Below, one piece after another: positions 5,199 to 64,000 of a stretch of 64,000 bases of DNA (the first letter of the stretch is position 1; each line of letters begins with the position of its first letter). The position numbers and the translations under genes are program-made. The notes under the pieces were generated by a model that ran no database searches, had not been told where the DNA came from, and was given only the letters and a program-made list of their open reading frames with translations. The stretch is from an uncultured Clostridiaceae bacterium (GTDB lineage Bacteria > Bacillota > Clostridia > DUPQ01), in assembly GCA_964563155.1 (NCBI GenBank), contig CAZLVL010000007.1, positions 6,389 to 70,388 on the forward strand, given 5' to 3'.

Positions 5199-6125
5199 AT
5201 GTATAATCTCTTGCATCTTAAATATGCTCTAGAGGTGGAAAAAACTGGTTCATTTTCCAAGGCTGCTCAAAACCTATACATGAACCAGCCCCAAGTTTCC
5301 AAGGCCATAAAAGAGTTGGAAACCTCTTTAAATATAATCATATTTGATAGAACTCCTGCAGGGGCTGTGGTTACAGCTAAGGGAAAAGAGTTTTTTAAAC
5401 ATGCTAGAAATGTTATTAATGAAGTAGAGCAGATGGAAAAGCTTTCTACTAAGGCAATTAAGAGTAACAAGGTCTTAAACATTTCTGTTCCTAGGGCCAG
5501 CTATGTCTCCTATGCCTTTACAGAGTTTTTAAACTCTATTAAAAAAGACCATGCCTTAAATGCTGACTACAGAGAAACCCATTCAGCTAGGGCCATGAAA
5601 AGTGTTTCCAAGTCTGAAAACAATTTGGGGATTATTAGATACAGAAAGAGGTTTGAAGAATACTTTTTAACCGCCTTAGATAAGTATGATTTGGTTTATG
5701 AGGACATTTTTTCCTTTGAATACCTACTTTTAATGTCTAAAGATTCTCCTATGGCTAAAAAAGAAAAGATTTATATGGAAGATATACAAGATAAGATTGA
5801 GATTATTCATGGGGATATTTCCATTCCTGCTAGGGCTTCTAGCAGGCAAGATATCTTAAAACTAGGTAAAGAAAAAAAGATTTCTGTCTATGAAAGGGCC
5901 AGTCAATTAGAAATGCTGGACAGAATCCCTGAAACCTTTATGTGGGCATCTCCTATGCCTCAATATATTTTAGACAAATTCAATTTAATCCAAAGAAAAT
6001 GTGAAGGTGGTGTAAATGTGTATAAAGATATATTTATATACAAAAAAGACCATATTTTAAGTGATCTTGAAATACATTTTATGGAGATTGTAAAAAAGAC
6101 AGCTGAAAAATTAAATAGACTATAG
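5199..6125 (+). CDS. LysR-family transcriptional regulator
   Basis: N-terminal HTH (LKYALEVEKTGSFSKAAQNLYMNQPQVSKAIKELE) followed by ~200 aa of co-inducer domain. Confidence 0.8.
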   Translation: MYNLLHLKYALEVEKTGSFSKAAQNLYMNQPQVSKAIKELETSLNIIIFDRTPAGAVVTAKGKEFFKHARNVINEVEQMEKLSTKAIKSNKVLNISVPRASYVSYAFTEFLNSIKKDHALNADYRETHSARAMKSVSKSENNLGIIRYRKRFEEYFLTALDKYDLVYEDIFSFEYLLLMSKDSPMAKKEKIYMEDIQDKIEIIHGDISIPARASSRQDILKLGKEKKISVYERASQLEMLDRIPETFMWASPMPQYILDKFNLIQRKCEGGVNVYKDIFIYKKDHILSDLEIHFMEIVKKTAEKLNRL

Positions 6126-6204
6126 ATAATGCTATATCGATAATGGAATATCGATATTCTAAAATGCATTCTACCCTAAGGTCATATTTCCTTTTATAAT
6201 GTAA

Positions 6205-6222
6205 TTGTTAAAACTTTAACAA
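6205..6222 (+). promoter_or_regulatory. Rex operator, perfect palindrome TTGTTAAAACTTTAACAA
   Basis: Matches the clostridial Rex consensus TTGTTAA-N4-TTAACAA exactly. It lies just downstream of a TATAAT (6195-6200) and ~75 bp upstream of rex. Confidence 0.65.
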
Positions 6223-6296
6223 TGTAAGGAATATGACTTTTTTCTTACATACAAAAAGAAAGGAGAGGTGCAAAGCATAGCTAGCACAAAGAGAAA

Positions 6297-6926
6297 ATGA
6301 ATCAAGTGTCAAGACAAACATTGGAAAGATTACCTCTTTATCTAAACTATCTAAAAAGTTTGGACTCTAATCTGCCAGAAAACATATCAGCAAGATGTAT
6401 CGCTGAAACCTTGGGCCTAACAGAAATTCAGGTGAGAAAGGATTTAGCCTGTGTAAGTGATGGGGGAAAGCCCAGAGTAGGTTTTGTATCCCTAGACCTT
6501 ATAAACGATATTGAGAACTTTCTAGGTTACAAGGATGTAAATGATGCAATCTTAGTAGGAACAGGAAAGCTAGGAAAGGCCCTAATGACCTACAAGGGAT
6601 TTTCTGATTATGGACTTAACATTGTTGCGGGTTTTGACATAGATGAAAACATAGTAGAAGAAAAAGAAGAGGGTAGGCCCATTTTTCATATATCAAAAAT
6701 GAAAAATCTCTGCCAAAGAATGAATATAAAGATAGGAATTATAACTGCCCCTTGGGAGGTAGCACAAGAAATAGCGGATGCCATGATTGATAGTGGAATT
6801 TTAGCTATTTGGAACTTTGCTCCTGCCCATATAGAGGTGCCAGAATGTGTTTTAGTTAAAAATGAAAATATGGCCGTTTCGTTGGCATTATTGTCAAAGC
6901 ATCTTAAAGAACAATTGACAAAATAG
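6297..6926 (+). CDS. rex: redox-sensing transcriptional repressor Rex
   Basis: MNQVSRQTLERLPLYLNYL... is a Rex-type N-terminal winged helix. It is followed by a Rossmann NADH-sensing domain (ILVGTGKLGKAL). Confidence 0.85.
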   Translation: MNQVSRQTLERLPLYLNYLKSLDSNLPENISARCIAETLGLTEIQVRKDLACVSDGGKPRVGFVSLDLINDIENFLGYKDVNDAILVGTGKLGKALMTYKGFSDYGLNIVAGFDIDENIVEEKEEGRPIFHISKMKNLCQRMNIKIGIITAPWEVAQEIADAMIDSGILAIWNFAPAHIEVPECVLVKNENMAVSLALLSKHLKEQLTK

Positions 6927-6939
6927 AAGGAGAATGTAT

Positions 6940-9555
6940 ATGAGTAATACAAGAGAAGTTATTGACACTAGAGAAAAACTGCAATTAGCACTGGGAAAAT
7001 TAAGACTAGCTCAAAAAGAGTTTGCCACATTTTCTCAGGAAAAAGTAGACCAAATCTTCAAAGCCGCTGCTATGGCTGCCAATAGTCAAAGGTTGCCCTT
7101 AGCCAAGATGGCTGTGGAAGAAACCAAGATGGGTATTGTTGAAGATAAGGTTATCAAAAATCATTATGCAGCTGAATATATATATAATACATATAAAGAT
7201 ACTAAGACCTGTGGTCTTGTAGAAGAAGATACAATAAACGGTATTAAAAGAATTTTAGAGCCTGTTGGAATTATTGCAGCGGTTATCCCTACAACCAATC
7301 CAACCTCCACCGTCATATTCAAAACCCTCATATCTCTAAAAACCAGAAATGGTATTGTCATAAGTCCTCACCCTAGAGCTAAAAACTCCACCATAGAAGC
7401 AGCTAGAATAGTACTAGAAGCTGCTGTTAAGGCTGGAGCACCTGAGGGCATTATTGAATGGATTGATGTGCCAAGTTTAGAAATGACCAACACTGTTATG
7501 AAAGAATGTGATTTAATCCTAGCAACAGGTGGCCCTGGTATGGTTAAAGCAGCCTACTCTTCTGGAAAACCTGCAGTTGGAGTTGGAGCTGGTAATACTC
7601 CTGCCATTATTGATAAAAGTGCAGACATCCTTTTAGCTGTTAACTCCATTATCCACTCTAAAACCTTTGATAATGGTATGATTTGTGCTTCTGAACAGTC
7701 AGTTATTGTGGATAAGACCATATACAACAAGGTTAAAAAAGAGTTTGAATACAGGGGATGCTACTTTTTAAACAAGGAAGAAACTGAAAAGGTTCGTAAA
7801 ACCATACTAATAAATGGGGCCTTAAATGCCAAAATAGTGGGCCAAAGTGCCTTTGATATAGCTAAGCTAGCCAATGTGGATGTGCCTACATATACAAAAA
7901 TCCTTATTGGTGAGGTGGTTTCTGTAGATATAGAAGAAGAATTTGCCCATGAAAAACTTTCTCCAGTACTAGCAATGTACAAGGCAGAAGATTTTGAAGC
8001 TGCCATAACAAAAGCTCAAAAACTAATAGAAGATGGTGGAATGGGACATACCTCTTCCATATATATAGATAGTTTAAATGCTAAAGAAAGACTAAACATA
8101 TTTGAAGATGCCATGAAGACCTGTAGGATCTTAATAAATACCCCTTCATCTCACGGTGGTATAGGTGATTTATATAACTTTAAATTAGCACCTTCTTTAA
8201 CCTTGGGTTGTGGTTCTTGGGGTGGAAACTCCACATCAGAAAACGTGGGAGTTAAGCATCTATTAAATATTAAAACAGTGGCAGACAGGAGAGAAAATAT
8301 GTTGTGGTTTAGAGCACCAGAAAAAGTATACATTAAAAAAGGTTGTACCCCCCTTGCCCTAGAAGAACTTAAAAATGTTTTAGGCAAAAAAAGAGTCTTC
8401 ATTGTAACTGACGAGTTTTTATTCAAAAACGGCTATACCAAACCTGTTACAGATAAACTAAATGAAATGGGCTTAGCACATCAAGTTTTCTTTGAAGTTA
8501 CTCCAGATCCTACCTTGGCTTGTGCTAAAGCTGGAGCTAAGGCTATGAGTGCCTTCCAACCAGACTGTATAATAGCCTTAGGTGGTGGTTCAGCAATGGA
8601 CGCTGCTAAGATTATGTGGGTTATGTATGAACATCCTCAAGTGGACTTTATGGATATGGCTATGAGATTTGCGGACATTAGAAAAAGAGTATACGATTTT
8701 CCTAAGATGGGAAAACTAGCCTACTTCATTGCTATACCTACAACAGCTGGTACTGGCTCAGAGGTAACACCTTTTGCAGTCATAACCGACGAAAAGACCA
8801 ATGTAAAGTATCCTTTGGCAGATTATGAAATAATGCCTAATATGGCTATAGTGGATGCAGACTTTATGATGAATGCTCCCAAGGCTTTAACAGCTGCCTC
8901 TGGTATTGATGCTGTAACCCATGCCCTAGAAGCTTATGCTTCCATGTTGGCAACCGACTACACAGATGCTTTGGCCTTAAGGTCCTTGAAAATAGTTTTT
9001 GAAAATCTTCCCACAGCTTATGAAAAAGGACCAGAAGATTCAAGGGCAAGAGAAAAGATGGCAGACGGAGCTACTATAGCGGGAATGGCCTTTGCCAATG
9101 CCTTCTTAGGAGTATGTCACTCCATGGCCCATAAGTTAGGAGCCTTCCATCATCTACCTCACGGTGTAGCAAACGCTTTGATGATTGAACAAGTCCTAAG
9201 ATTTAATGCATCAGAAAAACCAGTTAAGATGGGAACCTTCCCTCAGTACGACCACCCACATACCCTACAAAGATATGCTGACATAGCCCAATACCTAGGT
9301 TATGCTGGTAAAAATGACAAGGAAAGTTTAGAAAATCTCATAAATGGCTTAAATGACCTTAAAAAGAAGGTAGGAATTAAACAAAGTATTCAAGACTACG
9401 GTATTGATGAGAAGACCTTTATGGACAGCCTAGATGATATGGCAGACCAGGCCTTTGATGACCAATGTACTGGTGCCAATCCCAGATATCCTTTAATAAG
9501 TGAAATTAAGCAAATGTACATAAATGCATACTACAATAGGCAGGAGGAAGTTTAA
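6940..9555 (+). CDS. adhE: bifunctional acetaldehyde-CoA / alcohol dehydrogenase
   Basis: ~870 aa. N-terminal ALDH domain with the catalytic Cys context (NGMICASEQS). C-terminal iron-type ADH domain (GGGSAMDAAK, HSMAHKLG). ATG at 6940 follows AAGGAG with a 7 nt spacer and lies 13 nt after the rex stop. Confidence 0.9.
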   Translation: MSNTREVIDTREKLQLALGKLRLAQKEFATFSQEKVDQIFKAAAMAANSQRLPLAKMAVEETKMGIVEDKVIKNHYAAEYIYNTYKDTKTCGLVEEDTINGIKRILEPVGIIAAVIPTTNPTSTVIFKTLISLKTRNGIVISPHPRAKNSTIEAARIVLEAAVKAGAPEGIIEWIDVPSLEMTNTVMKECDLILATGGPGMVKAAYSSGKPAVGVGAGNTPAIIDKSADILLAVNSIIHSKTFDNGMICASEQSVIVDKTIYNKVKKEFEYRGCYFLNKEETEKVRKTILINGALNAKIVGQSAFDIAKLANVDVPTYTKILIGEVVSVDIEEEFAHEKLSPVLAMYKAEDFEAAITKAQKLIEDGGMGHTSSIYIDSLNAKERLNIFEDAMKTCRILINTPSSHGGIGDLYNFKLAPSLTLGCGSWGGNSTSENVGVKHLLNIKTVADRRENMLWFRAPEKVYIKKGCTPLALEELKNVLGKKRVFIVTDEFLFKNGYTKPVTDKLNEMGLAHQVFFEVTPDPTLACAKAGAKAMSAFQPDCIIALGGGSAMDAAKIMWVMYEHPQVDFMDMAMRFADIRKRVYDFPKMGKLAYFIAIPTTAGTGSEVTPFAVITDEKTNVKYPLADYEIMPNMAIVDADFMMNAPKALTAASGIDAVTHALEAYASMLATDYTDALALRSLKIVFENLPTAYEKGPEDSRAREKMADGATIAGMAFANAFLGVCHSMAHKLGAFHHLPHGVANALMIEQVLRFNASEKPVKMGTFPQYDHPHTLQRYADIAQYLGYAGKNDKESLENLINGLNDLKKKVGIKQSIQDYGIDEKTFMDSLDDMADQAFDDQCTGANPRYPLISEIKQMYINAYYNRQEEV

Positions 9556-9556
9556 A

Positions 9557-10306
9557 ATGAAGTTGGATAAGATTATAGCTGTAAGAACCAGCAAGACCAT
9601 TTATAGGGATAAAGACAAGGTAATAAAGCTTTTTAATGAAGATTATTCCAAGGCTGATATTCTTAATGAAGCCCTAAACCAAGCCAGAGTGGAAGAAACC
9701 GGCTTAAACATCCCTAAAATCTTAGAAGTGACCAAGATAGAAGGAAAATGGGCCATTGTACTAGAATTTATTGAAGGAAAAACCCTAGCTCAAATCATGG
9801 AAGAGGACAAGGAGAACTTTGACAAACACCTGGAAAGATTTGTGGACTTACAAATGGAAATGCACACCCATAAGGCTCCTTTGTTAAATAAACTAAAGGA
9901 CAAGATGAACAGGAAGATTACAGAAACCGGCCTGGATGCAACCATTAGATATGACCTTCACACCCGCCTAGAAAGTATGCCAAAAGGAACCAAGCTTTGT
10001 CATGGAGACTTTAATCCTAGTAACATTATTATTACTCCAGATGATAAAGCATATATCCTAGACTGGTCCCATGCTACTATGGGTAACGCTTCAGCGGATG
10101 TAGCCAGAACCTATTTACTCTTTTGGCTATCTGGAAACATAGACGGAGCAGAAAAATATTTAGAACTTTTCTGCAAAAAGAGCGACACAGCCAAGCAATA
10201 TGTGCAAAAGTGGATACCAATTGTAGCAGCCTCCCAATCAGTTAAGGGCAAGGCAGAAGAAAGAGAATTTTTATTACATTGGGTAAATGTAGTTGAATAT
10301 CAATAA
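9557..10306 (+). CDS. protein-kinase-like fold phosphotransferase (APH / choline-kinase family)
   Basis: Catalytic-loop-like CHGDFNPSNIII and ILDWSHATMG (APH/ChoK pattern). GGAGGAAG RBS precedes ATG at 9557. Begins 1 nt after the adhE stop and overlaps the next gene. Confidence 0.6.
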   Translation: MKLDKIIAVRTSKTIYRDKDKVIKLFNEDYSKADILNEALNQARVEETGLNIPKILEVTKIEGKWAIVLEFIEGKTLAQIMEEDKENFDKHLERFVDLQMEMHTHKAPLLNKLKDKMNRKITETGLDATIRYDLHTRLESMPKGTKLCHGDFNPSNIIITPDDKAYILDWSHATMGNASADVARTYLLFWLSGNIDGAEKYLELFCKKSDTAKQYVQKWIPIVAASQSVKGKAEEREFLLHWVNVVEYQ

Positions 10307-57954: not shown

Positions 57955-60732
57955 TTATGAAGGCCAAGTTATTTCAATTTCAAAGCCTAGCTTGAATACT
58001 CTTTCATTAAAGTCTTTTATTGAAAGAACAAAGGAGTTAATACCTAGATTATCTATAGAAGGGGTTCCCAAAAGAGCTCCATCCTTTTTATCTATTGAAA
58101 GCCAGATTGGCCCATAAAGTTCATAGACTAAATCATCCATATGAGAGCCTAAAAAGCCTAAATCATAAAGATATGTAGGTTTACATGAATAGGGTTGGTC
58201 TACCAAGGCCTTGGAGTCTATAGTGTCTTTAAAAATAAAAGGGTAGGGAAGACTTAAAAGGTCAGATGCAAGACCCCTATTTTTATTCTTATCAATTGCA
58301 TAAACCCTATAGTGGAATTGCAGCAAATCTCTATCTTTAGTTAAATCAAGACTTAAGAAGGGATTTTTAACCTGTTTTAAAAGATTGCTGGCATGTTCAA
58401 GCATTTTTTTAGATGTAGAAGAAGCCTTGTAACTAAAGTATTTAGTGTGAGATGGAATAAATGAAGAAATGTTTTCAGCAAAAACCATATAGGATTTGGC
58501 ATTTTTTGCTTTATCCCAACTTAAAAGTAATTTGTCTTGACTAAGTTCTAAGATAAGTCCTTTTACCTTATCAGGTGCTTCATGGGTGTATCTTTTAACA
58601 GGAGACCAATAGCCCCACACTCCATTTTTGTTTTTAGCTCTTACCCTCCAGTAATAGTGGGTATTGGGCCTTAAAAGCTTATACACCTCTATTTTCACTT
58701 GAACCCTTTTAGATAGTTTATGAAAGGCTGGACTATAGGGGATTTCACAAGACCTATCTAAACTTAGAATAAATTCATATTCAGAAGCATCAGGTAGACT
58801 AGTCCAAGAAAAAAGTCCTCTTCTCGGCTCTCTTAGTTGAGGGGCTATGGGCCTATCCATGGTAGATATGATGTAAGAGTGAGTTATCCTTAGATTTCCT
58901 TCTTCTGCCCTAATACCAAACCTATTGTTTCCAGCTCTTAATCTAGGAATACAAGTCCAATTAGCTTGGAAATATATGGTAAGAGAGTTTAGTCTAAACT
59001 TAGCAGCTTGGCCCTCTATAATAACATAAATCTCATTTACTAAATCAGACAATTTTTGCCCTTCATTTATGCTTGAGTATAGGGCAAACTCCCCAAGTTC
59101 ATTAACTGAAAAGGTCTCGCTAGATAGATTAGAAGTAATTTCAAGGCATCCAGAATATAGTCTACCTTCTAACAAAAAGCCAGTGATGGGATAAGAAGAC
59201 TGGTGGTCAAACCAAACTTTTCCATCTTTTTCGCAGGAAAAGAGATTATCTGTAATGTTCATTTTCCTGTAATGGAAAAACTTACCTAGGTTGGGATTTC
59301 TATGAAAATTTAAAATCTTCTTTCCATTTATAATGTTGGCATAGGGTCTTTTCTTACCATAAAAGGCTCCATAAAAATCTGGAGAAAAGACAATTTTTTC
59401 CTTGGGTTTTAAATAGAAGCCCATGGTGTAGGGATCTTTATATGAATCTTGCCAGTTTTCCCAAGAGATATCCTTTTTTGCTAAATCTAAAAGATAAGCT
59501 TTAGAGCCCTGCCAGGATTTTAAGATTTTATACAAATCCTTTTGTAAGTCCTTGTAGTCTAAAAAGCCCTTTTCATCATCAGGCAAGATATTTCCTAAAA
59601 AAGGAGAAGTGCTCCCTTCAAAGGCATCTACCAAGGTCTCTTTAGAATCTATTGATACTCTTAAAAGAGAGGGATTATCTGGTCTTTTTTCAGTCTTTTT
59701 AACCCCTAGGCCAGAGGCCCTAAGAAAAAGAGCAAAAAGGGCATTTAAGCTTTCTTTTTCTCCTCCAGTCATAAAGTTAAGATACCTAATTAGTGAAAAA
59801 TTCTTATCTTCCATATGGTCTGCTAGGTTTTGGTCTTCTAGGTTAATGTATTCATTAAAAAACTTCCAAAGAAGATAAAGTTTTTTCTCTTTCTTATCAG
59901 TGTTTTTAAAAAGACTTTGTATTAGGTTTTTAGTATTAGAAAAGTCTAAAAAACTATCTTTAAAGCCATAGATATATATATCTTTGTCATCTTTGTTTTC
60001 AATGGAATATTCAAGGTTGTTTTCAAAGGCTGGTTTTTCCTTAGCAACTCTACTAGTATTGTGGTAGTCCAAAAAGGTAAAGTTATCTATTTGATATTTA
60101 TACAAAAGGTCTTTGGTCCTAGCTGTTCTACTGGTAGAAATTACAGGTCTAAAATCTAAATCCTCTAACATGGCATTTTCTGGCCTATCGCCTAAGAAAA
60201 CATATGGAATATTATATAGGTCAGTAAGAATTATAAGGGTGTCATTAGCTTCAATGTTTACATATTTTTGCCTAGATTCCTTGGTAGGAACAAACTTTTT
60301 TATTGGCCTTTTGGAGTTGTTAGAGTACATCATGTGGCTAGGTTCATCATTTATTTGGTCTTTTAAAAACATATGACCATATATGGAGCCATCATGGTTT
60401 AAAATGGTAATAATAGAGGGTTCTAGATGGCCTTGAGCTTTTGTAAGTACATAGATATATTTTTTGCTAAGAGCTAGACTATATGGACCATTTAGGTTAG
60501 GTCCAAAGCTTTGAATATGATTGTTTTTAACTAAAAGAAGTCTATGATAAAGAGTATCGCAGGCTAAAAAGTTGCCAGACTTAAAAGAAACTACCTGGGT
60601 AATGTCACCTAAATGGTCTGGGTATCCACTTACCCTTGTAAACACTCTATTATCCGGCATAATCAATTCTTTTTGGCTTATGTCCCAAAAAATACTATTC
60701 TCTTTATCTGAATAGACACAAATCTTTGCCAT
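57955..60732 (-). CDS. large (925 aa) uncharacterised cytoplasmic multidomain protein; FN3-like module, C-terminal putative-Ig segment, possible degenerate transglutaminase-like core
   Basis: AGAGGT RBS. No signal peptide or TM. YYWRVRAKNKNGVWGYWS (FN3-like). LSIDKKDGALLGTPS (putative Ig motif). GEKESLNALFALFLRASGLG aligns to the transglutaminase-like G-C-x-x-[FY]-A-x-x-F-x-x-L-x-R-x-x-G-I core with the Cys position occupied by Lys. Confidence 0.55.
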   Translation of the reverse strand: MAKICVYSDKENSIFWDISQKELIMPDNRVFTRVSGYPDHLGDITQVVSFKSGNFLACDTLYHRLLLVKNNHIQSFGPNLNGPYSLALSKKYIYVLTKAQGHLEPSIITILNHDGSIYGHMFLKDQINDEPSHMMYSNNSKRPIKKFVPTKESRQKYVNIEANDTLIILTDLYNIPYVFLGDRPENAMLEDLDFRPVISTSRTARTKDLLYKYQIDNFTFLDYHNTSRVAKEKPAFENNLEYSIENKDDKDIYIYGFKDSFLDFSNTKNLIQSLFKNTDKKEKKLYLLWKFFNEYINLEDQNLADHMEDKNFSLIRYLNFMTGGEKESLNALFALFLRASGLGVKKTEKRPDNPSLLRVSIDSKETLVDAFEGSTSPFLGNILPDDEKGFLDYKDLQKDLYKILKSWQGSKAYLLDLAKKDISWENWQDSYKDPYTMGFYLKPKEKIVFSPDFYGAFYGKKRPYANIINGKKILNFHRNPNLGKFFHYRKMNITDNLFSCEKDGKVWFDHQSSYPITGFLLEGRLYSGCLEITSNLSSETFSVNELGEFALYSSINEGQKLSDLVNEIYVIIEGQAAKFRLNSLTIYFQANWTCIPRLRAGNNRFGIRAEEGNLRITHSYIISTMDRPIAPQLREPRRGLFSWTSLPDASEYEFILSLDRSCEIPYSPAFHKLSKRVQVKIEVYKLLRPNTHYYWRVRAKNKNGVWGYWSPVKRYTHEAPDKVKGLILELSQDKLLLSWDKAKNAKSYMVFAENISSFIPSHTKYFSYKASSTSKKMLEHASNLLKQVKNPFLSLDLTKDRDLLQFHYRVYAIDKNKNRGLASDLLSLPYPFIFKDTIDSKALVDQPYSCKPTYLYDLGFLGSHMDDLVYELYGPIWLSIDKKDGALLGTPSIDNLGINSFVLSIKDFNERVFKLGFEIEITWPS

Positions 60733-62026: not shown

Positions 62027-62458
62027 TTACATACCAATTTCTTCTAGTATTTCAATAGCCAGAACTATTGCATTAGGACAAACCTCTTGCATGGTTTCTT
62101 TGTTTTGCTCTCTTTTTTCTTCATCTCTAACATCAAAACCTAATAATTCCTTGCAAAGATAACTTTTATTCCTTTTAACATACTCATCCATAAAACGTAT
62201 GGTTAAATTATTACAATTAGCTTTAGCATCTTGGTCATCTCCACTTTCTTGACCATATTTAAGACCTAAGGCCATAAGAGCACCGGTTACACCACCACAA
62301 ACCTCACCACAGCGCATACCACCACCAAAGGCTCCTGCCATTTTCATGGCTGTATTTTCATCTAATCCTAAGTCCTTAGCATAGGCTCCAATAACCGCCT
62401 GTGAGCAATTGTATCCAGTGGAAAATAGTTCTAAAGCTTTATCAATTCTTTTCTTCAT
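62027..62458 (-). CDS. C_GCAxxG_C_C family putative redox-active protein
   Basis: GYNCSQAVIGAY and CGEVCGGVTGALMALG motifs of the C_GCAxxG_C_C family. 143 aa. Confidence 0.65.
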   Translation of the reverse strand: MKKRIDKALELFSTGYNCSQAVIGAYAKDLGLDENTAMKMAGAFGGGMRCGEVCGGVTGALMALGLKYGQESGDDQDAKANCNNLTIRFMDEYVKRNKSYLCKELLGFDVRDEEKREQNKETMQEVCPNAIVLAIEILEEIGM

Positions 62459-62600
62459 ACTTATTCGTGTGTCTTATGAGTCACACTCCTCCTTGTTTTA
62501 GTAATCTAAGTTTTTGCTACCTATATAGTTACTTATTGTAGGCTAAACATAATTATCCTTTAACATAATATGATACAAGCATAGATTATGCAAAGTTATT

Positions 62601-62670
62601 AAGAAAAGAGGGAAGAGGAGAGAAAAAAGAAAGAAGAAAGAAAAGATAGAGAGAAAAGAAAGAAACCAGC
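62601..62670. repeat. ~70-nt polypurine (A/G-only apart from one T) tract followed by a 9-bp GC-rich hairpin (62661-62682)
   Basis: aagaaaagagggaagaggagagaaaaaagaaagaagaaagaaaagatagagagaaaagaaagaaacc, then GAAACCAGC-TCA-GCTGGTTTC. Confidence 0.8.
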
Positions 62671-62759
62671 TCAGCTGGTTTCTTGGAAAAGAGTAGTGTT
62701 AATTGGTTTGTGTTTCAATGATTATTTGCTTCGTTTATGCCTAATGCTTGCAAGGTGCG

Positions 62760-64000
62760 TCACTCTCCGAATGAGACCACATAGGTACTAAACTCACTTT
62801 CTTTTTGCGCTGTGATGATAAGTGTATCATTGCATGTCCACCGGTAGCTCCTTATCAACCCATCAATCAGGTTTGCATTTTCGACGGAAGCGGTCAGTAA
62901 CTTTTGTATCCCAGTCGCCAAATCGACAAGCATCACATCATCTGTACCGGCCATGGGGTCGCTTCCGTAACCGATTGCCATTATCTTGCCAGACGGCGAA
63001 AACTGCGTCTCGGAACCAAGGTACCCAACCACTTTTGTGATCAGTGTCATTAAGCCTGTTGAGGCGTCTATGCGGCTGATATATGCTGTGGTATCGGAAG
63101 TCCCGTCAACATAGCTTGCATAGACAACGATACCGTCATTTACGCCGTCTATACGGAAGTTGGGAAGATTCGGAAACGATACGGAAACAATGGCCCCTGT
63201 AGTTATATCTACAATGCGGGTATCATGGAGTGAGCCAACCATGACATGGTAATCGGACACAAAGCCAACAATATCGTTGTTGAGTGCCGGTTCGATGATC
63301 CGCTGTTCTTTCCCTGTTCGCAGATCGATTGCCCATATGGTGGTGTCCGAAGAAGTGTCTTCGCAATCCTTGTTGGTGCGGTAAAGTGCATAATTGCCAT
63401 GGGGACTGACGAAAACGCTGTCAATCCAAAGCAGATAATAGCCTACACTCCTTTTTTTTGCCTCAATTTCATCCCAGTTTTTTCCTTCGTATGTGTCACT
63501 TGTTATTTTCTCAGATGTCAAGATTTTCGGATCGATACGCCATATTCCCATGTCGGTATAGGCGAGATATATACCTGCTTTATCGGTGGTAACAAAACCG
63601 CAAGACTGACCACCACCCCATTCCGACGGATATACAAAATAGTCATCCTCAATCCGTGCCTGATAGAACAGACAGGAATACTCGCCCTTCGATACACTTT
63701 TTATATTAATGCTGAAAGGATATGTTTCCACAGCAGCCACATCATTACCCTTGAATCCAAAGGCATTGGTATGATCTGCGATAAATTCCCCGCGGCGTTC
63801 TTCAAGATCGTCCACACTGCCAATCTCCTGACCTTGTTCGTCAAGCATACCGTTTGGATAGAGAATACGCATCATTTCGTCGTAGTCTTGTTCACTGACG
63901 GATTTCACCCATAGGGTTGAATCGTTCTCACCAGTTAAAACTCCCATATTCGGGTCTTTTAGGACAGGGATATCGTTCACAGTGCTGGGCTTGTTGTTAG
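62760..64000 (-). CDS. beta-propeller-like (TolB/PD40-like?) protein in a GC-richer segment; 5' end probably beyond the window
   Basis: ORF ends at a TGA (62757-62759). Composition visibly richer in G+C than the rest of the window. Repeated hydrophobic/Gly-Asp-rich blade-like segments (IVGFVSDYHVMVGSLHDTRIVDITTG, DGIVVYASYVDGTSD). The frame stays open upstream of the GTG at 63980 to the window edge. Confidence 0.5.
   Translation of the reverse strand, partial: NNKPSTVNDIPVLKDPNMGVLTGENDSTLWVKSVSEQDYDEMMRILYPNGMLDEQGQEIGSVDDLEERRGEFIADHTNAFGFKGNDVAAVETYPFSINIKSVSKGEYSCLFYQARIEDDYFVYPSEWGGGQSCGFVTTDKAGIYLAYTDMGIWRIDPKILTSEKITSDTYEGKNWDEIEAKKRSVGYYLLWIDSVFVSPHGNYALYRTNKDCEDTSSDTTIWAIDLRTGKEQRIIEPALNNDIVGFVSDYHVMVGSLHDTRIVDITTGAIVSVSFPNLPNFRIDGVNDGIVVYASYVDGTSDTTAYISRIDASTGLMTLITKVVGYLGSETQFSPSGKIMAIGYGSDPMAGTDDVMLVDLATGIQKLLTASVENANLIDGLIRSYRWTCNDTLIITAQKESEFSTYVVSFGE

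Follow-up and report, generated by a model that had tools for sequence, protein, structure and literature searches.

The end of a 64,000-nucleotide stretch of DNA from an uncultured Clostridiaceae bacterium (positions 6,389 to 70,388 of contig CAZLVL010000007.1; hereafter the window) carries a striking boundary, where a GC-rich gene for a beta-propeller protein is followed by a GC hairpin and an almost pure purine tract in an uncultured Clostridia genome of ~35% GC. We read this boundary as an acquired three-gene operon that encodes a two-component system and the propeller, a terminator that belongs to the recipient backbone, and a slippage-prone tract derived from a nearby GH3 glycosidase gene, with the propeller acting as an accessory or co-sensor protein, and we assign this joint reading a probability of about 0.72. 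A previous sequence-only reading had taken the same features as the signature of a horizontally acquired segment edge. That idea was borne out in that the operon is foreign in composition, has host-typical genes on both sides and occurs as a trio in other contexts elsewhere, but the edge bounds a three-gene block of ~3.3 kb and not a large island. The junction comprises the following features of the window:

62760..64000, minus strand: 3' 1.24 kb (C-terminal 412 codons and stop) of a gene for a signal-anchored, PD40/TolB-type beta-propeller, from the open frame and identity to protein P0001
62685..62759, minus strand: 3' untranslated spacer from propeller stop to terminator, GC 0.37, from a 10-contig alignment
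62660..62684, minus strand: predicted Rho-independent terminator hairpin with 11-bp stem and 3-nt loop, from terminator scans and folds
62601..62665, plus strand: purine tract (pyrimidine on the strand of both flanking genes), from run statistics, strain alignment, Tandem Repeats Finder (TRF) and GH3 homology

A compositionally foreign three-gene operon

GC content across 62760-63999 was 0.458, compared to 0.354 +/- 0.019 (maximum 0.407) over all other 1240-nt windows (z = 5.6), so the jump noticed from ~62750 to the window end was real in a sliding GC profile. Codon usage was compared with a reference of 42 window genes, which have a third-position GC content (GC3) of 0.303 +/- 0.032 (maximum 0.39) and a synonymous-codon log-likelihood of -0.968 +/- 0.056 (minimum -1.10). 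The propeller gene was an outlier by both measures (GC3 0.47, log-likelihood -1.39), confirming its different codon usage. The impression of a Gly/Asp-rich protein did not hold, as its contents of 8.3% Gly and 8.6% Asp are ordinary among the window proteins.

The locus was extended using contigs that encode the exact neighbouring C_GCAxxG protein, which is found in identical form on 13 contigs. A direct search via the propeller, by protein scan and exact 40-mer scan of metagenome contigs, returned no match, and the best propeller-related locus among the genome contigs searched had 46% identity. Extension used L014, a European Nucleotide Archive (ENA) contig 276,795 nt long that matches the final 11,974 nt of the window at 100% identity and adds 8,458 nt past the window end; window position x corresponds to L014 position 72459 - x. 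Its gene order is CN_hydrolase, GFO/IDH/MocA, a 296-amino acid (aa) protein, GH3, response regulator (RR), histidine kinase (HK), propeller, hairpin, tract and C_GCAxxG, with these positions:

L014:3135-5876: GH3 glycosidase gene, left of the operon, 6.7 kb from the tract and outside the window
L014 ~5965-6140: weak, decayed Cro/C1-type helix-turn-helix (HTH) remnant, found with an AT-rich spacer between GH3 and the response regulator gene, at the left cassette edge outside the window
L014:6217-6864: OmpR-type response regulator gene (Response_reg and Trans_reg_C)
L014:6867-8261: histidine kinase gene (HAMP, HisKA, HATPase_c)
L014:8299/8332-9699: propeller gene, 3' part in the window
L014:9775-9799: hairpin
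L014:10001-10432: C_GCAxxG gene

The three operon genes are co-directional, with the propeller gene last and its start codon ~130 nt past the window end. The RR and HK have the domains of an OmpR/EnvZ-class two-component system, with Pfam E values of 2.5e-22 for Response_reg, 2.1e-24 for Trans_reg_C, 2.6e-12 for HAMP, 5e-15 for HisKA and 9.6e-22 for HATPase_c. Maximum-likelihood segmentation of L014 placed the high-GC segment at 6420-9720 (~3.3 kb; GC 0.446 vs 0.353 outside; log-likelihood gain 46). Its right bound at L014:9720 is window ~62739, adjoining the propeller stop codon at 62760-62762, and beyond the block L014 goes back to host composition. GC3 of the RR, HK and propeller genes was 0.40, 0.47 and 0.47, and codon log-likelihood was -1.43, -1.41 and -1.39, more than 7 standard deviations (SD) below the 42 window genes in all three cases. 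Codon usage of GH3, the other left-flank genes and the C_GCAxxG gene was typical of the window.

The nearest relatives of the propeller, P0002 (64% identity) and P0003 (57%), lie on contigs L024 (46% GC) and L025 (42% GC), both of which keep the RR-HK-propeller order (aa identity 85% for RR, 66-70% for HK and 58-62% for the propeller) within flanks unrelated to the window locus. DNA homology to L014 was limited to 6170-9667; it begins 47 nt ahead of the RR start codon and breaks off shortly before the propeller stop codon. Small open reading frames (ORFs) upstream of the L025 cassette had no significant Pfam match and no PHROGs match, and do not show a mobile-element context.

Foreign origin of the segment is thus well supported by composition, codon usage, the portable trio and strain polymorphism. 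The operon would have come by horizontal transfer from a higher-GC Bacillota donor, presumably through a mechanism that left no recognisable recombinase or att signature behind. If it were instead a native core-gene block, its higher GC would have to come from protein composition or expression level. The operon is 100% identical in all 8 contigs carrying it, in an otherwise ordinary chromosome, and it has no mobility genes, which fits a native block. Yet the excess is found at synonymous sites (GC3 0.40-0.47 vs 0.30, with the codon log-likelihoods given above), is common to three functionally different genes and ends at the operon borders. Near-identical strains also differ structurally here, and the closest homologues are on 42-46% GC contigs with other flanks. 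A native origin is therefore improbable.

Mobile-element tests and the search for an empty site

Among called genes with Pfam hits on L014:1-20432, which covers 10 kb either side of the junction, there was no integrase, recombinase or transposase. No tRNA was found in L014, L018, L024 or L025, and the cassette was not flanked by att-like direct or inverted repeats or terminal inverted repeats beyond chance-level 11-19-mers. The propeller had no PHROGs match and no tblastn match in phage or plasmid collections. The integrase, tRNA and att repeats that had been proposed as things to look for beyond the window were thus missing from the 10 kb past its end and from the surroundings of the cassette. 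The operon is a small block free of mobility genes and not an integrase- or tRNA-type island.

These results bear on the idea that the junction is the edge of a classical integrative element, such as a genomic island, prophage or integrative and conjugative element, with the tract as its attachment site or scar. The compositional break and strain polymorphism do coincide at the junction, and the weak Cro/C1-type HTH remnant (L014:5965-6140; HTH_26 E = 0.024) lies at the other cassette edge. Nevertheless, we find this origin very unlikely given the lack of recombinase or transposase among called genes within 10 kb either side, of tRNA and att repeats, and of propeller matches in phage and plasmid collections or PHROGs. 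The foreign block is also just ~3.3 kb and three genes long, and the hairpin sequence occurs once, with no second copy of either hairpin or tract seen at the left junction. Finally, the tract and hairpin occur in a haplotype that lacks the propeller junction, and the tract appears to derive from GH3 coding DNA. The HTH remnant itself reads KELQEKLGISQGELGKCLGASCQTINAVKTGRF and, after two adjacent stops, IAKHFKISIEDVFDF; it contains internal stops, and its HTH_26 match is under the Pfam cut-off.

Nearest relatives of the host genes had 39-51% aa identity and no shared synteny at this locus. In the search for an empty site, a neighbouring 925-aa protein had one homologue (39%), whose locus was partly syntenic on the far side only, and CN_hydrolase homologues at 50% identity shared just the CN_hydrolase-GFO pair. 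The proteins P0034 and P0036 pointed to no further relative, only to the strain contigs L019 and L028. The 925-aa protein (window 57955-60732, minus strand) has no significant Pfam domain, and its one homologue among 5.8 billion proteins, at 39% identity, is annotated as transglutaminase-like and comes from a Clostridia metagenome-assembled genome (MAG). This single homologue shows how poorly the host lineage is sampled.

The operon resembles horizontally acquired genomic islets in its atypical GC and codon usage over a few genes, its sharp intergenic borders and its strain structural polymorphism. It differs from them in that one border is a pre-existing host terminator, not a tRNA or repeat, and in that no empty site is shown in any relative.

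Strain haplotypes at the junction

An alignment of 10 contigs was used to compare the junction between strains. Eight contigs carry the exact window junction, while L018 and L019 differ; samples of the L018/L019 type are ERZ4239849 and SRR8925714. The right flank of these two contigs is 99.7% (L018) and 99.0% (L019) identical to the window. Leaving aside one difference within the tract, L018 first departs from the window 3.9 kb into this flank. The alignment defines one further feature:

62617..62621 (L014:9838-9842): end of near-identity (>99%) to the L018/L019 haplotype, from the BLAST alignment end

Beyond this point, towards higher window coordinates, the tract is rearranged, and past the hairpin there is no homology to L018; the loss occurs ~0-12 nt upstream of the hairpin. 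L018 and L019 both keep a longer tract, and L018 alone reaches past the hairpin. On the upstream side of the hairpin, the L018 sequence is AT-rich, unrelated to that of the window and holds the end of a different ORF (terminating in FHSL and a stop), and L018:1-117 had no match among the other sequences compared. The tract and hairpin therefore belong to the backbone, because the second haplotype has both but has different DNA upstream of the hairpin. The L019 strain has GH3 too, on contig L028, which comes from the same sample and ends inside that gene.

Since metagenome assemblies do get broken or mis-joined at low-complexity tracts and by mixtures of strains, and two contigs end at or near the tract, higher-GC DNA could have been mis-joined here to give an assembly chimera. 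However, eight contigs share this junction, and they derive from at least seven samples and from several assembly sources (ENA k141 contigs, Logan and JGI); L014, L015 and L016 regain host composition and host genes on the far side. Because eight contigs from several samples and assembly sources carry the exact window junction, we regard a chimera as practically ruled out.

Elsewhere on L014 (4025-5702, 13.3-14.2 kb and 18.2-19.6 kb), differences from L016-L019 are concentrated in a few 1-2 kb patches of 2-3% divergence, the remaining sequence being identical, a patchiness typical of homologous-recombination imports. One such patch falls within GH3, its end 170 nt short of the GH3 stop codon. 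A recent sweep, considered on account of the 100% identity of the cassette, was rejected, as the strain differences cluster in recombination patches far from the junction and the DNA directly beside the cassette is just as identical.

The hairpin

The core hairpin, GAAACCAGC-TCA-GCTGGTTTC at 62662-62682, extends to an 11-bp stem at 62660-62684 with 5 G-C pairs. It is unique in the window and had 0 matches in 100 shuffles. On the minus strand, the stem is 75 nt past the propeller stop codon and is directly followed by UUUCUUUUCUCU. Both the minimum free energy and centroid folds contain the stem, and terminator scans found it to be the sole strong same-strand terminator after the operon. From its sequence, the hairpin is predicted to be the ordinary intrinsic terminator of the operon, where it would end the transcript in a Rho-independent manner. 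Like known terminators of this type, it has a GC-containing stem, a 3-nt loop, a U-rich run and a stop codon upstream on the same strand; it differs in that the U-rich tail is broken by C residues and runs into a ~60-nt pyrimidine tract of other origin.

L018 carries the same hairpin with a TTA loop instead of TGA, while the L025 cassette has its own, different terminator. The hairpin is thus part of the recipient backbone rather than of the cassette, because the alternative haplotype has it and the L025 cassette does not. The earlier description of a unique hairpin 3' of the gene was correct, but as a signature of a horizontal-transfer edge it reduces to a predicted intrinsic terminator.

The purine tract

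The near-pure A/G tract adjoining the hairpin, put earlier at ~70 nt, measured 65 nt, of which one is a pyrimidine. It is 2.5x longer than any comparable run elsewhere in the window, the runner-up being 26 nt, and exceeds the maximum of 28 nt obtained from mononucleotide shuffles. The L018 version of the tract, in the window plus-strand reading, aligned to nt 49-170 of the GH3 gene with a local score of 119, compared to 30 +/- 4.7 (maximum 56) for shuffles. The match had 81% identity over 115 nt (E = 2.6e-24), and there was no other match in ~76 kb. The link of the window tract to GH3 runs through the L018 version because the window tract is too degraded alone.

The GH3 source region encodes a Lys/Glu/Arg-rich cytoplasmic tail before a single transmembrane helix, in codons that are nearly all purine. 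Translation gives LRKEGREELSSFSRKEKGIEIKKKEE for the L018 relic and ARKERKKELSALTRKEKRIEIKKDKK for GH3; the relic has no start codon and contains stops. As for the GH3 protein itself, its Lys/Glu/Arg-rich N-terminal tail is 85 aa long and is followed by one transmembrane helix, and its domain order is permuted (Glyco_hydro_3_C at 145-390, Fn3-like at 451-523, Glyco_hydro_3 N-domain at 642-869).

A 13-nt unit, TCTATCTTTTCTC, was present in 6.2 copies in L018 vs 2 degenerate copies in the window by TRF and alignment, between flanks that are >99% identical. The window tract also lacks 58 nt kept by L018, a deletion bounded by CTCTC microhomology. Loss of this 58-nt middle, which contains non-purine bases, from the window allele accounts for both the near-pure purine run and the lost GH3 match. 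These two changes bear out the suggestion that the tract is slippage-prone.

By sequence comparison, the tract appears to be an inverted, partial and decayed duplicate of the GH3 5' coding region that merges with the terminator T-tail on the other strand. An inverted partial copy of this purine-rich region (AAA/AAG/GAA/GAG/AGA codons) would have left a pseudogene scrap beside the terminator. A microhomology deletion would then have removed the non-purine middle of the scrap, and its 13-nt unit would expand and contract by slippage between strains. The idea of an integration scar did not survive these comparisons, as the tract shows homology to the 5' end of the GH3 coding sequence nearby and, in its longer form, occurs with the hairpin in a haplotype with different DNA upstream.

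We also considered that the tract is a functional regulatory element, either a copy-number-variable, contingency-type spacer or an H-DNA sequence that tunes the C_GCAxxG promoter or shields it from the operon upstream. The tract abuts a -35-like hexamer, its 13-nt unit varies from 2 to 6 copies with a 58-nt indel between strains otherwise >99% identical, and the 65-nt run contains a perfect 20-nt purine mirror repeat, AAAAGAAAGAAGAAAGAAAA. A second purine-rich 50-nt leader (843-890) also occurs upstream of another gene. However, the variation is upstream of the -35, so promoter spacing is unchanged, only two length alleles were seen, and a coding relic decaying by slippage accounts for these observations with no need for a function. 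A regulatory role is thus unlikely.

Two known kinds of locus are similar in part. The tract resembles variable-number tandem repeat (VNTR) contingency loci in having a tandem 13-nt unit whose copy number differs between strains beside a promoter-like site, but its repeat is upstream of the -35-like hexamer and outside the spacer and any ORF, with two alleles and no evidence found for switching. It resembles H-DNA-forming purine mirror repeats in being a homopurine-homopyrimidine tract with a 20-nt mirror repeat. It differs from contingency and H-DNA loci in its probable derivation from GH3 coding DNA.

The propeller protein and its family

On the minus strand, no further stop interrupts the frame between the one at 62760-62762 and the window end, so the 406-aa ORF listed with a GTG start is a truncation. 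The window fragment is 100% identical to P0001, whose called length is 476 aa. Translation probably starts at MKKWITG, and the full protein would be ~455-476 aa. Its N-terminus, MKKWITGIVLVVVIILGSTALLTFAM, is a signal anchor with no cysteine, hence no lipobox. An AlphaFold2 (AF2) model (pLDDT 81, pTM 0.75) combines a beta-propeller with a small alpha/beta domain and a long helix at the N-terminus. Foldseek matched TolB, oligogalacturonate-lyase and WD40 propellers at probability 1.0, although TM-scores were just 0.3-0.5.

P0001 alone had no Pfam match at E <= 0.1, while Pfam PD40 (PF07676) matches were obtained for 11 of the 18 family members, along with a weak match of the family profile to TolB (7mx5, E = 5e-4). 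The beta-propeller call made from sequence was therefore correct, and repeat matches in the family together with the modelled fold point to a propeller of the PD40/TolB type. The protein shares with PD40/TolB proteins the PD40 repeats of its relatives, the TolB profile match and the predicted fold, but it belongs to a small, uncharacterised family, has no Tol-Pal context and reaches TM-scores of 0.3-0.5.

The family had 33 matches in a set of 5.8 billion proteins, and a set of 1.84 billion representatives gave 259 clusters at E <= 1e-3. Named members are Bacillota (Oscillospiraceae MAGs, Paenibacillus, Carbobacillus, Thermincola), and most loci have 42-64% GC. The proposed search for the taxonomic origin of the propeller led to Bacillota, mostly at higher-GC loci. 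No RR or HK gene lies near the more distant homologues (35-52% identity). In these, an M23 peptidase gene instead directly follows the propeller gene (L002:11407-12315, L004:3228-4124, L034:1502-2413) or is fused to it (L006:4916-7099, L008:9878-12142). In L004 and L005, a further conserved ORF of ~190 aa comes after, with no Pfam match.

Possible function of the trio

Hydropathy analysis gave the kinase two transmembrane segments around a ~130-aa outside loop and the propeller one N-terminal signal anchor. The propeller most likely assists the kinase as an accessory or co-sensor protein responsive to a signal related to the cell wall, a role suggested by the conserved gene order of the trio and by the link of the wider family to M23 peptidases. 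The extracytoplasmic propeller would then assist the kinase outside the cell, probably in response to a cell-wall-related cue.

A characterised system with similar logic is MtrA-MtrB-LpqB of Actinobacteria, which is linked to cell division and the cell wall; its accessory lipoprotein LpqB contains a propeller, is encoded next to mtrAB, interacts with MtrB and modulates it (PMC2732212, PMC5845573). Both systems have the order OmpR-type RR, sensor kinase and exported propeller protein, seen here in L014, L024 and L025 (three lineages), and the present propeller family is linked elsewhere to M23 peptidoglycan peptidases. In contrast to LpqB, this protein lacks a lipobox cysteine, has PD40/TolB-type repeats, comes from Bacillota instead of Actinobacteria and is known here from genes alone. 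None of the 18 family members matched Gmad1 or GerMN at E <= 0.01. The propeller is not an LpqB family member, because it has no GerMN or Gmad1 domains and is not a lipoprotein.

A more far-reaching view is that the trio represents a previously undescribed 'three-component' module of Bacillota, in which a rare, extracytoplasmic PD40 propeller, ancestrally the partner or fusion partner of M23 peptidoglycan endopeptidases, would have been recruited as co-sensor to form a functional analogue of MtrAB-LpqB that would move from lineage to lineage as a self-contained cassette. We hold this view tentatively, as a possibility with clearly less than even chances.

Weighing the joint reading

Several observations weigh against reading the junction as an acquired operon, a backbone terminator and a GH3-derived tract with a co-sensing propeller. 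The window tract alone scored 31 against GH3, compared to 25.8 +/- 3.8 for shuffles, which is not significant. Of the two contigs with the alternative haplotype, L018 runs 117 nt past the hairpin before it ends and L019 ends inside the tract, 0 nt beyond it, and the difference may be due to an insertion sequence (IS) in an L018/L019-type strain. Around the cassette, no integrase, transposase, tRNA or flanking repeat was found, and no database relative with conserved synteny shows an empty site. Lastly, we infer the co-sensor role of the propeller from gene order and analogy alone.

Neighbouring features

On the far side of the tract, the window contains a gene with host-typical codon usage and a candidate promoter for it:

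62027..62458, minus strand: C_GCAxxG_C_C family gene, 143 aa, host-typical flank (Pfam E = 2e-33; GC3 0.24, log-likelihood -0.89)
62565..62594, minus strand: promoter-like site TTTGCA-18-TATTAT for the C_GCAxxG gene, abutting the tract (9/12 matches in a consensus scan alone, which gives no functional evidence)

The 5' untranslated region (UTR) of the C_GCAxxG gene (window 62459-62500, minus strand) contains a strong Shine-Dalgarno-like sequence, AAGGAGGAG, at an unusual spacing of ~30 nt before the ATG. The interval between the two contains a TAA in frame and a short, imperfect inverted repeat (GTGTGAC...GACACAC). The junction region, including the tract and this 5' UTR, had no Rfam family match.

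The only other long purine/pyrimidine run in the window is at 843-890, purine-rich on the minus strand, where a 50-nt leader, GAAGGGGTAAGAGAAAACAAAGAAAAGACAAGAAAAAAGAGAGGTAAACA, lies directly upstream of an ATG at 838. A TATAAT box precedes the leader, and the minus-strand ORF behind it runs off the window start.

Implications

The striking boundary at the window end resolves into three ordinary things: an acquired two-component operon, what is predicted to be an intrinsic terminator, and a probable decaying, slippage-prone coding scrap. Near-pure purine tracts in low-GC genomes can thus be relics of Lys/Glu/Arg-rich coding sequence rather than recombination sites. The new biology is only mild and consists of the uncharacterised propeller family and its two alternative partnerships, the rest being of known kinds. 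This rare PD40 propeller family pairs with either an M23 peptidase or a two-component system, and the two partnerships lead to a testable hypothesis, that the propeller is a cell-wall-sensing accessory protein in Bacillota.

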